From NCBI RefSeq assembly GCF_053078305.1, contig NZ_CP166879.1: 64,000 nucleotides of DNA. The stretch is one strand, 5' to 3'. Positions 1,832 to 58,703 of this stretch are shown piece by piece. The notes below the pieces were generated by a model, which saw only the letters and a program-made list of their open reading frames with translations, did no database searches and was not told the origin of the DNA. How positions within the stretch are numbered: the stretch's first letter is position 1; the number at the start of each line of letters is the position of its first letter. Made by a program: the position numbers and the translations under genes.

Positions 1832-3571
1832 TCAGAAATCCCGGAACAGATTAAAACCGGCTGTCACATCACTCGTCATAAAACCCGCCGGCTTTGAAAA
1901 CGGACGACCGATGAAAACGTCATAATCCGTACTGAACAGTTGCCCCCTCAGCCCCACAACACCACCGGCCAGATGACGTCCCACCAGATATTCACTGCCG
2001 GCTCCCCCCACCTCGCCGTAATCCATTCCCAGATATAACGCCTGCTCCGGCAGTGGCGTACGCCAGGCCAGGTCGTTGCGGATATACCAGCCGTTACTGG
2101 CATTCAGCGTTCGCTCCCCGTCAAAACCACGAACCGTCCAGCGGTTACCGATGGCAAACTGTTCCTGTGGGGTCAGCGGGGTATTGCTCAGCTGGCGCTG
2201 ATACCGGAAGGAATAACTGAAGGGCTGCTCTGCCAGTGTAAAGGGCAGATTAAAGGATGCATTCATCTGCAGGATCTTACTGAGCGCCGTTGCCTCACCG
2301 AAGATTTCCTCCGGTGCCGGCTGTGCACCAAACCAGCGGGTTCCCCGTTGCCAGCTGACACCAGCATCCAGTGTGGCCTGAGAAATATAATGACGGTGCT
2401 GCAGCCCAAGTCGCCAGGCCGCTGTCTGCCGGCGCTGCACCTGGATTTCCGTATCATTAATGTAGTTACGCGACCTGCGGGCCTGAACATCGTAAGTCAG
2501 CACCGTTTTCTGCGTCCCGTTACGATGCAGTACCCGGCTCAGCTGCATGCCCAGATTCTGACTCTCGCCACTGTACTGGTAATCCTCAACCGCACCAGCT
2601 ACCGTCTGATGGTAATCGTAATCACTGGCGGTGACGGAAAACTGCCAGTAACCGAAAGGCACAGAGTAATGGGCCGTGTAGTTTTTACTGCCCTTACCCC
2701 CGTAATGTGGAAAATTATGGGTGGCAGAAACATACAGCAGGTCACTCAGGGAAAAAGGATTATCCAGAGAAAATGTTATACCACCGAGATAACGCCCTGT
2801 GCTGCGGGTACCTGAATCATCAAGCGAAAACCCCAGTCGCCAGTATTTATCCTGTTTACGGGTAATAAGAATATCACTTTCCCCTGGCTGCTCACCGGGC
2901 ACAATTTCCATATCAGCCTGCACACCCGGCAGTCGTTGCATATTCTCCAGCCCCTGCTCAATGTCCCGTAAATCCAGCAGAGAACCTTCGTGTGCCGGGA
3001 ATGAGGAATACAACTGAATATAGTCATCACTGTCCGGTGTCAGACGCACATGTCGCACAACACCGGGAATAATAACCAGCCGGAGGATACCGCTTTTTAA
3101 ATCCTGCGAAGGTGCCAGAACACGGGTGGTGACATAACCATGATCGACCAGACGGTTCTGCAATGTACTCATCAGCAGATTAATTCCTTTCGCCCCCAGG
3201 CAATGCCCGACCGCCCCGTTGGCGATTTTTTGTAAAGGCAGCCAGTGTGGTAACGCATCAGCCCCCTTCAGTTCCGTCTGTTTAATCTGAAAACAGGGCG
3301 TTTCAACAGGAAAATTAATCTTATGGGCAAAAGAGCCAGGTGCAGAAAGGCGAACATCAGGGGCTGAAGGCGTCAGTTGTTGCTCAAGGGCTTCCTGACG
3401 CTGCTGCTGAATGATAAATGTATCCTCTCCACTACGCCGGATATCCGCTGCCTGAAGAGATAAAGGCGATAGTAAAACAGACATCAGTGTCAGTGACAGC
3501 AAGGACGGACAGCGCCGGAATACGCTTTGTTCCTCAGCCCTCTCGTTCCTGCAACATAATTTTCCAGTCAA
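1832..3571 (-). CDS. cdiB: TpsB/CdiB outer-membrane two-partner secretion transporter (ShlB/FhaC family)
   Basis: 579 aa ORF with N-terminal signal peptide, POTRA-like region and C-terminal aromatic-rich beta-barrel ending in F; directly upstream of cdiC and cdiA in the same orientation. Exact start codon uncertain. Confidence 0.75.
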
Positions 3572-3732
3572 ACGAAAAACCTTTTATTCATGCCATACCA
3601 ACAATCACCAGCCTCCTGACGATACCTCCCACCATGTTTTGCAGTGGTACGCTACCGCCCTTCCGGTATTTACCCACACCAACCGGTACCAGAATGCTGA
3701 GTAACAAATCCGTTCAGAATTGACTTAATTTT

Positions 3733-3808
3733 GATCATTATAGAATAATGATCTGAGCGACAGCAATATGACAGATTTATCGATCGATATAACACAAATG
3801 AACAGATC
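3733..3808. promoter_or_regulatory. Candidate regulatory region upstream of cdiB with four GATC sites and two palindromes
   Basis: GATC at 3733, 3750, 3782, 3805; perfect 9-3-9 palindrome gatcattat-aga-ataatgatc at 3733..3753; palindrome tatcgatcgata at 3778..3789; direct repeat atatcgcaaaa at 3822 and 3838. Confidence 0.3.
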
Positions 3809-4159
3809 TTTATTCTGCCGAATATCGCAAAAACAGCATATCGCAAAACTTATAACCATAATTAATGGAAAAGTGCAGAAAATTATTCCACTGAATGCTT
3901 TTAATACAGTTGGTTAGCTAAAAAAATATCATTTTTTGATTTCAGTCATTGAAAATTGCAATGCGTGACGATTCAACAGCATTTAAGTGAGTTTCAGGAT
4001 ATGGGAAGGACATGAAAGGAGGAGCGTAATAAAACACACAGGAAGAAGGGGAAAATGTTTCGTAAAAACAGAAAATTAACAGCGCACATCAGGAAACTCA
4101 GTCTCCTGATTCAGTGCTACCACATGAAAATTTAGTTAACTGTTACCGTACTAAAATTT

Positions 4160-14121: not shown

Positions 14122-15141
14122 ATGAATAACGAACAGATGCTTATCAAATGCAAAGATCCCCGTAAATGTCGGTTTTATGCTGAATATCTGAATCACAAAT
14201 ACCCCAATGAATTCCCTCAGTTTGCGCCTGACAACCCACAAAACTGTATCAGAAATGTTAATGCGTTTTTAAAAGAAAAGTATTGTAATACTTCAAACAA
14301 TTCTTTTGGTGTTTTTGGTTCGACTGCAGAAGAAGCTCTCAGCAAAGAAATTAATGAACTTGAAATTATTGCAGGGCAGGCAATACTGCCTGAAGAGAGT
14401 TTTCTCTGGTTGAAAACTGACGAACTTGCGACTTTCTTTACCTGGACTACTATTTATCTGTCGAAGGAAGACCATACAAATTTCCCGGAAATAAACCATA
14501 ATTCATCAGGGATAAAAAACGGAATTGAAGTCAGAAAAAGACGAACAGTTACCGATGAAACGTTAAATACTTACAAAAAAAGTAACCTTCCGGATAATCC
14601 ATCATCCCATAACGAACGAATAAAAGTAATCATTTTATATTTTGATTCCTGTCATTCTTTAATTAATAAAAATGCAAAAAGCATATACCTCGAGGAACTC
14701 AGGCAGACGTGGCTTAAAAATAAAAGCGCTTGTCAAAAGTTTAAGTGGCTCCTTCCTGACGATGATGAAATGTGTCAGTGGTTCTGGACAAGACTGAAAC
14801 AAAAACAGGATGAAACACATCCGGTACATAACCCGGTGACCCGGTGGTTCATACCATCTTCAACGAAAGAATATTATCTTGCCTCTCTCGTCGCCTTTGC
14901 TTTATGGAAAGAGGCACCTGATACCATTGAACTGTTCAGAACACGCATAAATCATGCCTGGCATCAAAAAAAACAAAAAGACAAATATCGGAATGATGGT
15001 AAAAAGGCTATTAATATACATATAAGAAGCAATGCGAAAGAAATGCTTGATGAACTCAGAACTGTTTACGGTCTGAGAACAGGAGAGTTTTTTGAAATGC
15101 TGATTACAGAAAAATATCTTGAACACAAGCGAAGGAAGTAA
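14122..15141 (+). CDS. Hypothetical low-GC, Lys-rich protein (339 aa) with C-terminal RHH-like segment
   Basis: ORF with GGAGTGAG ribosome-binding site, preceded by about 1.1 kb of ORF-free AT-rich DNA; C-terminus INIHIRSNAKEMLDELRTVYGLRTGEFFEML looks ribbon-helix-helix-like. Confidence 0.5.
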   Translation: MNNEQMLIKCKDPRKCRFYAEYLNHKYPNEFPQFAPDNPQNCIRNVNAFLKEKYCNTSNNSFGVFGSTAEEALSKEINELEIIAGQAILPEESFLWLKTDELATFFTWTTIYLSKEDHTNFPEINHNSSGIKNGIEVRKRRTVTDETLNTYKKSNLPDNPSSHNERIKVIILYFDSCHSLINKNAKSIYLEELRQTWLKNKSACQKFKWLLPDDDEMCQWFWTRLKQKQDETHPVHNPVTRWFIPSSTKEYYLASLVAFALWKEAPDTIELFRTRINHAWHQKKQKDKYRNDGKKAINIHIRSNAKEMLDELRTVYGLRTGEFFEMLITEKYLEHKRRK

Positions 15142-15211
15142 TTCATTACCTGTTACATTCTAAATAATCTCAGACAGATATTATCTCCGTGAATCCCCCG
15201 CCACCTTTCCG

Positions 15212-16123
15212 GTGCGCGGGGTTTTGTCTTTTTTCACCGGGAATACATGTATGAATCCGTCTGATGCCATTGAGGCAATTGAAAAACCGCTCTCCTCCCT
15301 GCCTTACTCACTTTCCCGTCACATCCTGGAACATCTGCGCAAACTCACCAGCCACGAACCCGTGATTGGCATTATGGGGAAAAGCGGGGCCGGTAAATCC
15401 TCACTCTGTAATGCACTGTTTCAGGGGGAGGTCACCCCGGTCAGTGATGTTCACGCCGGCACCCGGGAAGTGCGGCGCTTCCGTCTGAGTGGCCATGGTC
15501 ACAACATGGTTATCACTGACCTGCCCGGGGTGGGTGAGAGCCGGGACAGGGATGCAGAGTATGAAGCCCTGTACCGTGACATTCTGCCTGAACTTGACCT
15601 GGTGCTGTGGCTGATTAAAGCCGATGACCGTGCCATGTCTGTGGATGAGTATTTCTGGCGACACATCCTGCACCAGGGACATCAGCAGGTGCTGTTTGTG
15701 GTGACACAGGCCGACAAAACGGAGCCCTGCCATGAATGGGATATGGCCGGTATTCAGCCTTCTCCCGCACAGGCACAGAATATTCGCGAAAAAACGGAGG
15801 CGGTATTCCGTCTGTTCCGGCCCGTACATCCGGTTGTGGCCGTATCGGCCCGCACCGGCTGGGAACTGGATACGCTGGTCAGTGCGCTCATGACAGCGCT
15901 TCCCGACCATGCCGCCAGTCCCCTGATGACCCGCCTGCAGGACGAGCTGCGCACGGAATCTGTCCGCTCTCAGGCCCGTGAACAGTTTACCGGTGCGGTG
16001 GACCGGATATTTGACACGGCGGAGAGCGTCTGTGTTGCCTCTGTTGCCCGTACGGTTCTGCGTGCCGTCCGTGACACGGTGGTCTCTGTTGCCCGCGCTG
16101 TATGGAACTGGATTTTCTTCTGA
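15212..16123 (+). CDS. YeeP/YkfA/YfjP-family GTPase
   Basis: P-loop GIMGKSGAGKSS and G-domain motifs; conserved position upstream of flu. The track ORF starts at GTG 15212; the first ATG is at 15251. Confidence 0.8.
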   Translation: MRGVLSFFTGNTCMNPSDAIEAIEKPLSSLPYSLSRHILEHLRKLTSHEPVIGIMGKSGAGKSSLCNALFQGEVTPVSDVHAGTREVRRFRLSGHGHNMVITDLPGVGESRDRDAEYEALYRDILPELDLVLWLIKADDRAMSVDEYFWRHILHQGHQQVLFVVTQADKTEPCHEWDMAGIQPSPAQAQNIREKTEAVFRLFRPVHPVVAVSARTGWELDTLVSALMTALPDHAASPLMTRLQDELRTESVRSQAREQFTGAVDRIFDTAESVCVASVARTVLRAVRDTVVSVARAVWNWIFF

Positions 16124-16239
16124 ACACTCTGCCAGGAAAATGCCTGATTACATTGCGTTAACCAACTGAAAACATGACACAAACACCTCATGCTCCTCCT
16201 GTTTCTCTTGCGTGACCGCCTTGCAATCAATAGAATAAA

Positions 16240-16280
16240 ACGATCGATAAAACAGATATCGATCGTTACTATCGATCGTT
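16240..16280 (+). promoter_or_regulatory. agn43 (flu) regulatory region with three GATC sites (OxyR / Dam phase-variation switch)
   Basis: GATC at 16242, 16261 and 16274 within cgatcgataaaacagatatcgatcgttactatcgatcg, about 220 bp upstream of the flu start; matches the known agn43 switch architecture. Confidence 0.75.
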
Positions 16281-16494
16281 TATAGTGGTTAATGGTCTGC
16301 GAAAAGGCAGTTGAATCTCTTCATCATGCAGAACGGAATTGCACAAAACGGACTGATACTTCTCTGGCGGATGAGAGAGGGGAAGCATTTATGTCCGGGA
16401 AAAACCACTGTATCTGACCATGCTGTTTTGTACCTGCCGGTATCCACATTTGTGGGTACCGGCTTTTTTATTCACCCTCTGTAAGGAAAAGCTG

Positions 16495-19400
16495 ATGAAA
16501 CGACATCTGAACACCAGCTACAGGCTGGTATGGAATCACATTACGGGCACCCTGGTGGTGGCCTCCGAACTGGCCCGCTCACGGGGAAAACGCGCCGGTG
16601 TGGCGGTTGCTCTGTCTCTTGCTACTGTCACGTCAGTCCCGGCACTGGCTGCTGACACGGTTGTTCAGGCAGGAGAAACCGTGAATGGCGGAACACTGGT
16701 AAACCATGACAACCAGTTTGTATCCGGAACAGCTGATGGCGTGACTGTCAGTACCGGGCTTGAGCTGGGGCCGGACAGTGACGAAAACACCGGCGGGCAA
16801 TGGATAAAAGCGGGTGGCACAGGCAGAAACACCACTGTCACCGCAAATGGTCGTCAGATTGTGCAGGCAGGAGGAACTGCCAGTGATACGGTTATTCGTG
16901 ACGGCGGGGGACAGAGCCTGAACGGGCTGGCGGTGAACACCACGCTGAATAACAGAGGCGAGCAGTGGGTTCATGAGGGCGGGGTTGCCACCGGTACAAT
17001 TATCAACCGCGACGGTTACCAGAGCGTTAAAAGTGGCGGGCTGGCAACAGGAACCATCATCAACACCGGCGCAGAAGGCGGCCCGGATTCTGACAACTCG
17101 TACACGGGTCAGAAGGTCCAGGGAACAGCAGAATCCACCACCATCAACAAAAATGGACGGCAGATTATCTTATTTTCCGGGATAGCCCGTGACACTCTCA
17201 TTTACGCAGGTGGTGACCAGTCGGTACACGGAAGGGCCCTGAATACCACACTGAATGGCGGTTACCAGTATGTGCACAAGGACGGACTTGCGCTGAACAC
17301 GGTAATTAACGAGGGGGGCTGGCAGGTTGTTAAGGCAGGTGGTGCTGTCGGTAACACCACCATAAATCAGAACGGTGAACTGAGAGTACATGCCGGCGGG
17401 GAAGCAACTGCAGTCACCCAGAACACGGGCGGTGCACTGGTTACCAGTACGGCTGCAACCGTTACCGGCATAAACCGCCTGGGAGCATTCTCCGTTGTGG
17501 CGGGTAAGGCTGATAATGTCGTACTGGAAAATGGCGGACGTCTGGATGTGCTGAGCGGACACACAGCCACTAATACCCGTGTGGATGATGGCGGAACGCT
17601 GGATGTCCGCAACGGTGGTGCCGCCACCACCGTATCCATGGGGAATGGCGGTGTACTGCTGGCCGATTCCGGGGCCGCTGTCAGTGGTACCCGGAGCGAC
17701 GGAAAGGCATTCAGTATCGGAGGCGGTCAGGCGGATGCCCTGATGCTGGAAAAAGGCAGTTCCTTCACACTGAACGCCGGTGATACGGCCACGGATACCA
17801 CGGTAAATGGCGGACTGTTCACCGCCAGAGGGGGCTCGCTGGCGGGCACCACCACGCTGAATAACGGTGCCACGCTTACCCTTTCCGGGAAAACGGTGAA
17901 TAACGATACCCTGACCATCCATGAAGGTGATGCACTCCTGCAGGGAGGCGCTCTTACCGGTAACGGCAGGGTGGAAAAATCAGGAAGTGGCACACTCACT
18001 GTCAGCAACACCACACTCATCCAGAAAACCGTCAACCTGAATGAAGGCACGCTGACGCTGAACGACAGTACCGTCACCACGGATGTCATCGCTCAGCGCG
18101 GCACGGCCCTGAAGCTGACCGGCAGCACAGTGCTGAACGGTGCCATTGACCCCACGAATGTCACCCTGACATCCGGTGCCACCTGGAATATCCCCGATAA
18201 CGCCACGGTGCAGTCGGTGGTGGATGACCTCAGCCATGCCGGACAGATTCATTTCACCTCCACCCGCACAGGGAAGTTCGTACCGGCAACCCTGAAAGTG
18301 AAAAACCTGAACGGGCAGAATGGCACCATCAGCCTGCGTGTACGCCCGGATATGGCACAGAACAATGCTGACAGACTGGTCATTGACGGCGGCAGGGCAA
18401 CCGGAAAAACCATCCTGAACATGGTGAACGCCGGCAACAGTGCGTCGGGGCTGGCGACCAGCGGTAAGGGTATTCAGGTGGTGGAAGCCATTAACGGTGC
18501 CACCACGGAGGAAGGGGCCTTTGTCCAGGGGAACAGGCTGCAGGCCGGGGCCTTTAACTACTCCCTCAACCGGGACAGTGATGAGAGCTGGTATCTGCGC
18601 AGTGAAAATGCTTATCGTGCAGAAGTCCCCCTGTATGCCTCCATGCTGACACAGGCAATGGACTATGACCGGATTCTGGCAGGCTCCCGCAGCCATCAGA
18701 CCGGTGTAAACGGTGAAAATAACAGCGTCCGTCTCAGCATTCAGGGCGGCCATCTCGGTCACGATAACAACGGCGGTATTGTCCGTGGGGCCACGCCGGA
18801 AAGCAGCGGCAGCTATGGCTTCGTCCGCCTGGAGGGTGACCTGCTGAGAACAGAGGTTGCCGGTATGTCTCTGACGACAGGGGTGTATGGTGCTGCAGGC
18901 CATTCTTCCGTTGATGTTAAGAATGATGACGGCTCCCGTGCCGGCACGGTCCGGGATGATGCCGGCAGTCTGGGCGGATACCTGAATCTGGTACACAACG
19001 CCTCCGGCCTGTGGGCTGACATTGTGGCCCAGGGAACCCGCCACAGCATGAAAGCGTCATCGGACAATAACGACTTCCGCGCCCGGGGCTGGGGCTGGCT
19101 GGGCTCACTGGAAACCGGTCTGCCCTTCAGTATCACTGACAATCTGATGCTGGAGCCGCAACTGCAGTACACCTGGCAGGGACTCTCCCTGGATGACGGC
19201 CAGGATAACGCCGGTTATGTGAAGTTCGGGCATGGCAGTGCACAACATGTGCGTGCCGGTTTCCGTCTGGGCAGCCACAACGATATGACCTTTGGTGAAG
19301 GCACCTCATCCCGTGACACCCTGCGCGGCAGTGCCAAACACAGTGTGCGTGAACTGCCGGTGAACTGGTGGGTACAGCCTTCTGTTATCCGCACCTTCAG

Positions 19401-19617
19401 CTCCCGGGGGGACATGAGCATGGGTACAGCCGCAGCCGGCAGTAACATGACGTTCTCACCGTCACAGAATGGTACGTCACTGGACCTGCAGGCCGGACTG
19501 GAAGCCCGTGTCCGGGAAAATATCACCCTGGGCGTTCAGGCTGGTTATGTCCACAGCGTCAGCGGCAGCAGCGCTGAAGGCTATAACGGTCAGGCCACGC
19601 TGAATGTGACCTTCTGA
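16495..19617 (+). CDS. flu: Antigen 43 self-associating autotransporter
   Basis: N-terminus MKRHLNTSYRLVWNHITGTLVVASELARSRGKRAGVAVALSLA is the Ag43 signal peptide; repetitive alpha domain and C-terminal beta-barrel ending NVTF. Start set at ATG 16495 rather than the track start 16420. Confidence 0.95.
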   Translation: MKRHLNTSYRLVWNHITGTLVVASELARSRGKRAGVAVALSLATVTSVPALAADTVVQAGETVNGGTLVNHDNQFVSGTADGVTVSTGLELGPDSDENTGGQWIKAGGTGRNTTVTANGRQIVQAGGTASDTVIRDGGGQSLNGLAVNTTLNNRGEQWVHEGGVATGTIINRDGYQSVKSGGLATGTIINTGAEGGPDSDNSYTGQKVQGTAESTTINKNGRQIILFSGIARDTLIYAGGDQSVHGRALNTTLNGGYQYVHKDGLALNTVINEGGWQVVKAGGAVGNTTINQNGELRVHAGGEATAVTQNTGGALVTSTAATVTGINRLGAFSVVAGKADNVVLENGGRLDVLSGHTATNTRVDDGGTLDVRNGGAATTVSMGNGGVLLADSGAAVSGTRSDGKAFSIGGGQADALMLEKGSSFTLNAGDTATDTTVNGGLFTARGGSLAGTTTLNNGATLTLSGKTVNNDTLTIHEGDALLQGGALTGNGRVEKSGSGTLTVSNTTLIQKTVNLNEGTLTLNDSTVTTDVIAQRGTALKLTGSTVLNGAIDPTNVTLTSGATWNIPDNATVQSVVDDLSHAGQIHFTSTRTGKFVPATLKVKNLNGQNGTISLRVRPDMAQNNADRLVIDGGRATGKTILNMVNAGNSASGLATSGKGIQVVEAINGATTEEGAFVQGNRLQAGAFNYSLNRDSDESWYLRSENAYRAEVPLYASMLTQAMDYDRILAGSRSHQTGVNGENNSVRLSIQGGHLGHDNNGGIVRGATPESSGSYGFVRLEGDLLRTEVAGMSLTTGVYGAAGHSSVDVKNDDGSRAGTVRDDAGSLGGYLNLVHNASGLWADIVAQGTRHSMKASSDNNDFRARGWGWLGSLETGLPFSITDNLMLEPQLQYTWQGLSLDDGQDNAGYVKFGHGSAQHVRAGFRLGSHNDMTFGEGTSSRDTLRGSAKHSVRELPVNWWVQPSVIRTFSSRGDMSMGTAAAGSNMTFSPSQNGTSLDLQAGLEARVRENITLGVQAGYVHSVSGSSAEGYNGQATLNVTF

Positions 19618-41054: not shown

Positions 41055-41786
41055 CTAGCTGCGCTGACGAACCGCTTCAAATAAGCAAATTCCGGTTGCA
41101 ACCGAAACGTTCAGAGAAGAAACACTTCCTGCCATTGGGATGCTGATCAACTCATCGCAATGTTCACGGGTCAGGCGACGCATACCTTCACCTTCCGCGC
41201 CCATCACCAGCGCCAGGCGTCCGGTCATTTTGCTCTGATAGAGTGTATGATCCGCCTCACCTGCCGTACCGACGATCCAGATATTCTCTTCCTGCAACAT
41301 ACGCATGGTACGCGCAAGGTTAGTCACCCGAATCAGTGGAACGCTTTCTGCCGCGCCGCAGGCTACTTTTTTCGCCGTAGCGTTGAGCTGTGCGGAGCGA
41401 TCTTTCGGCACAATCACCGCGTGAACGCCAGCAGCGTCCGCGCTACGCAGGCACGCGCCGAGGTTGTGCGGATCGGTTACACCGTCGAGGATCAGCAGGA
41501 ACGGTTGATCGAGCGAAGCGATCAGCTCCGGCAGATCGTTTTCCTGATACTGACGTCCTGGCTTCACGCGGGCGATAATGCCCTGATGCACGGCACCGTC
41601 GCTTTTCTCGTCGAGATATTGGCGGTTTGCCAACTGGATAACCACGCCCTGAGACTCAAGGGCGTGAATCAGCGGTAACAGACGTTTATCTTCACGGCCT
41701 TTTAAAATAAAGACTTCCTGAAAACGTTCAGGGGCGCGCTCCAGCAGGGCCTGCACTGCGTGGATGCCGTAAATCATTTCGCTCAT
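41055..41786 (-). CDS. rlmB: 23S rRNA (guanosine2251-2'-O)-methyltransferase
   Basis: 243 aa SpoU-family methyltransferase. Confidence 0.9.
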
Positions 41787-58404: not shown

Positions 58405-58480
<76 letters not shown>

Positions 58481-58515
58481 TTGGGTGGTCTGTGCCTTAC
58501 AGCACTTTCAAATTT

Positions 58516-58591
<76 letters not shown>

Positions 58592-58627
58592 TTGGGTGGT
58601 CTGTGCTTTGCAGCACTTTTCAAATTT

Positions 58628-58703
<76 letters not shown>

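Follow-up and report, generated by a model that had tools for sequence, protein, structure and literature searches.

A probable Dam/OxyR phase switch upstream of agn43 in a regulatory allele that is common in Escherichia coli and differs from that of K-12

The segment 16240-16280 of the window (the whole 64-kb stretch of DNA analysed here) is, with a probability of roughly 0.8, the agn43 Dam/OxyR switch of an agn43-yeeR-irmA operon with an IS102 leader, present in a common allele that is not the K-12 one. From the sequence we strongly infer that this copy of agn43 is phase-variable, as a first-pass annotation had proposed. The reading is built on the anatomy of the sequence, its homology to K-12, the conservation of the allele and the identity of the downstream genes, all of which are observed. 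The element is already known, being an ordinary copy of the textbook switch and not a new one; the Dam/OxyR switch of K-12 agn43 has been described before (Henderson & Owen 1999, Haagmans & van der Woude 2000, Waldron 2002 and Wallecha 2002).

The annotation had listed three GATC sites at 16242, 16261 and 16274 in an agn43-type arrangement. The sites are found there (16242-16245, 16261-16264 and 16274-16277), and the arrangement is borne out by their spacing, by the register to the -10 hexamer and by the flanking sequence. The spacing of 19 + 13 bp is that of K-12 agn43 (GATC at 1345, 1364 and 1377 of the K-12 locus L001). Each GATC of the switch lies inside a perfect copy of an 11-mer, AACGATCGATA, which occurs once in forward and twice in reversed orientation and is absent elsewhere in the window. 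Around a 7-nt centre, unit 1 is repeated in inverted orientation by unit 2, perfectly over 11 bp; unit 3 repeats unit 2 directly at a distance of 13 bp. The elements of the promoter and switch are as follows, where type A denotes the K-12-like regulatory family and type B that of the window.

16208..16213, plus strand: -35 hexamer TTGCGT, located by gapless alignment to the K-12 promoter (TTGTCC in the K-12 family)
16231..16236, plus strand: -10 hexamer TAGAAT, within a block identical at 22/22 positions between the families and invariant among the sampled alleles
16239..16249, plus strand: unit 1, AACGATCGATA, with GATC-I (16242-16245)
16250..16256, no strand: inverted-repeat centre AAACAGA, 7 nt, which separates type B from type A/K-12 (TCTATTT)
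16257..16267, minus strand: unit 2, TATCGATCGTT, the reverse complement of unit 1, with GATC-II (16261-16264)
16270..16280, minus strand: unit 3, TATCGATCGTT, with GATC-III (16274-16277)

The spacer between the -35 (16208-16213) and the -10 hexamer (16231-16236) is 17 nt long. A sigma-70 consensus scan called no promoter at the switch, the -35 TTGCGT having only 3/6 matches, and the promoter assignment therefore rests on homology. The transcription start is predicted at about 16240-16243, at or beside GATC-I, since the 5' RACE end of EC958 agn43, 228 bp from the start codon (PMC4807369), fits the type A class with GATC-I at -228/-227; the IS102 model, too, begins here, at 16240.

Alignment to the K-12 agn43 regulatory region, which had been proposed as a check, returned the same spacing, -10 register and units, whereas the regulatory allele proved to be a different one (type B). 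The gapless alignment anchored on GATC-I was preferred to that of MAFFT because it keeps the 19/13 spacing and perfect block identity; the MAFFT alignment, which was rejected, opened a 13-nt gap within the switch and paired GATC-III of the window with GATC-II of K-12. Shared with K-12 are the 19/13 GATC spacing, TAGAAT at equal distance, the 11-nt units, a leader with terminator hairpin and RBS, and Ag43 downstream. The centre of the inverted repeat differs (TCTATTT in K-12, AAACAGA here), so that the CTAT tetrad is lost in the window, and where K-12 has TTGTCC as its -35 the window has TTGCGT. The window's leader exceeds that of K-12 by about 31 nt, and its part from the switch to the terminator has no alignable counterpart there. 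Units 1 and 3 each carry a single mismatch in K-12, whereas all three match perfectly in the window. The GTPase gene on the upstream side and yeeR-irmA on the downstream side, truncated or deleted in K-12, are intact in the window.

The GATC cluster at 16242-16277 is clearly non-random, given the K-12 spacing (about 0.004 triplets with exact 19/13 spacing are expected per 64 kb), the isolation of the sites, the conservation of the triplet in 110 of 117 sampled copies and the perfect 11-mer at each site. The switch GATCs are the only ones in 5.5 kb, the nearest others lying 2,087 bp upstream and 3,379 bp downstream, and the GATC-free gaps on either side are two of the three longest in the window. 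A functionless chance cluster would find some comfort in the nine overlapping GATC triplets within 36 bp that the window contains, such clusters not being rare per se; we nevertheless regard it as excluded by the spacing, isolation and conservation just given. The overall density of GATC is ordinary, with 250 across the 64-kb window, equal to the shuffle expectation. The other clusters (31762, 32997, 41471-41537, 52836 and 59390) were considered and set aside as GC-rich and unlike the switch. The one at 41471-41537 holds five GATC in 67 bp inside a GC-rich ORF on the minus strand (41055-41786) and does not resemble the switch units. A pap-type Lrp/Dam arrangement, with two GATC about 102 bp apart in clusters of Lrp sites, is not what is found at the switch, where neighbouring sites are 19 and 13 bp apart and the next GATC is more than 2 kb off.

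Conservation was surveyed in agn43 loci extracted from metagenomes by a 21-mer at the RBS/ATG, i.e. outside the switch, which gave 120 loci. With loci from genomes added, the set extending 330 nt upstream came to 117 copies. Three GATC at exactly 19/13 were present in 110/117 of these upstream regions. One GATC had been lost by point mutation in 6/117 (for example TATCAATCGTT or ATCTATCG), and 1/117 was without a switch; an altered or locked phase would be predicted for these six natural variants and the switchless copy.

Two regulatory families were found. In type A (K-12-like) TAGAAT lies 231-239 nt from the ATG and the inverted-repeat centre is T/C/A-CTATTT. In type B, to which the window belongs, TAGAAT is at -264 and the centre is AAACAG[G/A]. 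Recombinants between -35 type and core type occur among the sampled alleles, and type B is linked to coding alleles of 948, 1039 and 1040 aa. Comparison of the family consensuses gave identity of 22/22 from the -10 through unit 1, 11/11 in unit 2 and 9/9 in the first nine bases of unit 3, against 0/7 in the inverted-repeat centre, 0/2 in the two bases between units 2 and 3, and 1/14 in the promoter spacer. In the 80 nt past the switch the consensuses share about 26% identity, which is random. By this block footprint, constraint acts on the -10 and on the three GATC units, while the sequence separating them is free of it.

The OxyR site was scored with the classical 37-bp consensus, ATAGnTnnnAnCTAT followed by 7 nt and a second ATAGnTnnnAnCTAT, out of 20 in the K-12 register. 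Single matches to ATAGnTnnnAnCTAT were also scanned for across the 64-kb window at a threshold of 8/10. A disrupted OxyR site had been named as an outcome that would speak against the annotation, and the answer is divided. Two 8/10 half-sites over all three GATCs are conserved, while the CTAT tetrad is replaced and the 37-bp score falls from 14/20 in type A to 10/20 in type B (window), because CTAT, one of the four K-12 tetrads, situated between GATC-I and GATC-II, falls in the replaced centre. The scan gave 12 half-sites of at least 8/10 in 64 kb, three of them in the switch (16230, 16258 and 16262, the last two overlapping); these are consensus matches, a weak model for a motif as degenerate as that of OxyR, with scores inflated by the palindromic CGATCG cores. 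The two half-sites that together hold all three GATCs are 32 bp apart.

16230..16244, no strand: predicted OxyR half-site L, ATAGAATAAAACGAT, 8/10, overlapping the -10 and GATC-I; same in both families
16262..16276, no strand: predicted OxyR half-site R, ATCGTTACTATCGAT, 8/10, containing GATC-II and GATC-III; same in both families

Half-sites centred 32 bp apart are canonical for reduced OxyR, and functional half-sites score 7-10/10 (Cota et al. 2016, PMC4856963). Binding of agn43 by both reduced and oxidised OxyR has been reported (PMC2909390). We infer that the conserved determinant would be the pair of half-sites at extended spacing, with the difference between types A and B falling in an intervening helical turn that OxyR would not contact.

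E. coli encodes Dam and OxyR. In the proposed mechanism, transcription would begin at or beside GATC-I from the promoter with -35 TTGCGT and -10 TAGAAT. Unmethylated DNA would be bound by an OxyR tetramer in the reduced, extended form, resting on the two half-sites 32 bp apart, 16230-16244 (-10 and GATC-I) and 16262-16276 (GATC-II and GATC-III). Bound OxyR would block RNA polymerase and shield the three GATCs from Dam, giving a heritable OFF state. If Dam were to methylate first after replication, OxyR would be excluded and the operon would be ON. Binding of OxyR to the window's allele, the mode of that binding and actual switching are in this sense predictions from the DNA sequence.

The Salmonella gtr and opvAB systems resemble the window in having GATC inside OxyR half-sites, pairs of GATC 13 bp apart in one half-site (as described for gtr in PMC2909390), and the half-site spacing of reduced OxyR. 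In those systems, by contrast, three or four half-sites are occupied alternatively upstream of the promoter and OxyR acts as an activator as well, whereas the window has a single predicted site over -10/+1 and repression only would be expected. The gtr/opvAB layout of at least three separate half-sites upstream of the promoter, offering two mutually exclusive tetramer positions, was not found in the window.

The lower consensus score in the K-12 register is also what would be seen in a relic or locked switch, in which loss of CTAT weakens OxyR so far that Dam always wins and the operon is constitutively ON or controlled by the leader terminator only. Single-base changes within OxyR half-sites do lock opvAB (PMC4856963), and our literature search, which included Cah/STEC and Ag43 variants and left the primary agn43 papers outside, yielded no methylation, OxyR or switching data on type B and hence no direct test of it. 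Several observations nevertheless make a locked switch improbable. Type B is the commoner family, with about 80 of the 112 classifiable sampled copies, and a match of at least 80% to window positions 16120-16500 is present in 3,445 of 5,426 complete E. coli genomes, i.e. approximately 3,445 carry type B. All three units are perfect in 52/81 type B copies, and the blocks conserved between the families coincide exactly with the two 8/10 half-sites. A further argument comes from CFT073, where in-vivo protection from Dam persists in modules whose segment between GATC-I and GATC-II is different too.

The in-vivo experiments that can be tied to a sequence concern type A alleles only (K-12, and agn43a and agn43b of CFT073). 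Among the CFT073 GATC sites that lack methylation on either strand in vivo are those of agn43b (1225386/405/418) and agn43a (3491586/605/618) (Blow et al. 2016, PMC4752239, supplementary file 6). These two loci share with the window the same module, the GTPase-agn43 (-yeeR-irmA) context on pathogenicity islands and an Ag43 that is 89% identical; the regions of both were inspected and have the K-12-like core of type A, unlike the window with type B. OxyR represses agn43 121-fold in EC958, and the operon is OxyR-repressed in CFT073 too (agn43b; Moriel et al. 2016, PMC4807369). The EC958 operon would be of type A, judging only by the position of its transcription start; unmethylated sites are not listed in the EC958 methylome supplements. 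The type B copy of ST131 strain 4224 was considered as the operon of Moriel et al. and ruled out, being frameshifted and without yeeR-irmA. The up-regulation of Ag43c in Nissle is circumstantial only.

Two further agn43-like modules were found in CFT073, each upstream of a dynamin-family gene.

NC_004431 268724-268758 (L130:925-959, reverse strand): agn43-like module
NC_004431 2358454-2358488 (L131:1955-1989): agn43-like module

Both share their -35, CTTGCGT, with type B and continue with AATAGAATA, three GATC at 18/13 and then GATCGTTTGTAGT. OxyR half-sites of 8/10 are found at the equivalent positions, 31 bp apart. All six GATC of these triplets (268724/737/755 and 2358454/472/485) are unmethylated in vivo, on both strands, and the second cluster had been annotated merely as lying between c2519 and the hypothetical gene c2520 (Blow et al. 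2016, PMC4752239). Four CFT073 loci are thus protected from Dam despite different sequence and length between GATC-I and GATC-II, which indicates by analogy that this segment, the one replaced in type B, would not be critical for Dam protection.

The transcript of the switch region is itself a known RNA. The agn43 leader is already a curated RNA family (RF00124), and cmscan scored the match at 74.7 bits, above the gathering score of 46 (E = 2e-12, model positions 1-206 of 206).

16240..16476, plus strand: agn43 leader RNA, Rfam RF00124 "IS102 RNA" (cmscan)
16436..16469, plus strand: terminator-like hairpin of 12 bp (8 G-C pairs) with T-run, in the leader just 5' of the RBS; conserved with K-12

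The match is full-length, from GATC-I to the terminator, and the central part of the model aligns poorly here (large insertions, posterior 0.87), as the type B leader has diverged. The terminator-like hairpin itself covers 16436-16463, with the T-run next to it.

The palindromic units could be thought to act mainly as RNA, forming a 5' stem-loop of the leader/IS102 RNA for stability or termination. The IS102 model indeed makes a hairpin of units 2 and 3, in the minimum-free-energy fold it is units 1 and 3 that pair, and folding of the leader is better than that of its shuffles (z-score -3.25). A stem would allow compensatory changes, yet the GATC cores are invariant; the conserved block includes the -10, which is outside the transcript; and non-methylation in vivo in CFT073 together with the genetics of K-12 show function at the DNA level. 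A mainly RNA-level role is for these reasons very improbable. An RNA role in addition to the DNA switch could exist.

The Dam/OxyR switch lies upstream of, and on the same strand as, a gene of the Ag43 autotransporter family. In UPEC, agn43-yeeR-irmA is a single OxyR-repressed operon (Moriel et al. 2016, PMC4807369). The genes concerned are:

15212-16123: YeeP-type GTPase gene, upstream of agn43
16495..19617, plus strand: agn43 (flu), intact Ag43 autotransporter of 1040 aa (NF033177), coding sequence without GATC
19738..22254, plus strand: yeeR-like gene, second of the operon; the position matches an annotated hypothetical protein in GPEC1176
22330..22785, plus strand: irmA, third of the operon; an IrmA family protein is annotated at the matching position in GPEC1176

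Ag43 of the window scores 1871 bits with NCBIfam NF033177 (cutoff 1200) and shares 89% identity with CFT073 Ag43b along its entire length. The start at ATG 16420 called by the program (1065 aa) was rejected, as it falls in the leader, before the terminator hairpin; homology and an RBS mark ATG 16495 (1040 aa) as the start. After irmA follow DUF905, DUF932, an antirestriction gene, yeeS/T/U and cbtA, and the surrounding genes are a CP4-44-like genomic island of E. coli. The window is 99% identical to E. coli strain GPEC1176.

With such a switch, Ag43, YeeR and IrmA (a cytokine-receptor mimic) would very probably be expressed in a heritable sub-population only. This has consequences for aggregation, biofilm and persistence phenotypes and for any expression study begun from single colonies. 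Furthermore, the allele with which the textbook mechanism was worked out is not the majority allele of E. coli.

The coding sequence of agn43 (16495-19617) contains 0 GATC, where 9.0 +/- 2.4 are expected from synonymous-codon shuffling; zero was not reached in any of 2,000 shuffles. GATC is likewise absent from the upstream GTPase gene (15212-16123), where 3.1 are expected (P about 0.01); this gene is part of a GATC-free stretch at 14159-16241. No depletion is seen in yeeR, with 19 GATC against 15 expected. Complete agn43 ORFs without GATC made up 78/89 of those sampled, including 62/62 linked to type B. A GATC-free block of 4.8 kb at 22902-27692 (about 19 expected under a Markov model) covers DUF905, DUF932, the antirestriction gene, yeeS, yeeT, yeeU and cbtA. 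Under-representation of GATC in E. coli genomic islands has been reported for ST131 (PMC4659465), and the lack of GATC in the agn43 coding sequence is therefore only partly new.

That the two families are functionally different switches, and that the absence of GATC from the agn43 coding sequence is a selected "GATC desert", is a combined proposal which we consider rather unlikely. Type B, without CTAT for four contiguous contacts, might be a target of OxyR in its extended (reduced) form alone, in which case its ON/OFF bias or its response to oxidative stress would differ from that of K-12. That such a desert would keep neighbouring Dam or SeqA activity away from the three switch sites is speculation.

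A second place in the window has motifs resembling the agn43 switch, TATAGAATAATGATC and TTTATCGATCGATATAAC. They lie in an AT-rich intergenic region at 3700-3830, upstream of a TpsB gene of the ShlB/FhaC family on the minus strand (1832-3571), with GATC at 3733, 3750, 3782 and 3805. This region may be another Dam-sensitive promoter.

Scans of genome contigs for agn43 in other species gave 0 and then one match, which is uninformative on this point. The match, the only one to the agn43 anchor in the species-representative genome collection, is a 2.3-kb contig (JAIJJM010000521.1) with the start of an E. coli agn43 and the switch, binned as a "Collinsella sp." MAG; its assignment to Collinsella probably reflects an error in binning. 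On the minus strand of the window, 58405-58703 holds three tRNA-Gly(GCC) genes in tandem.
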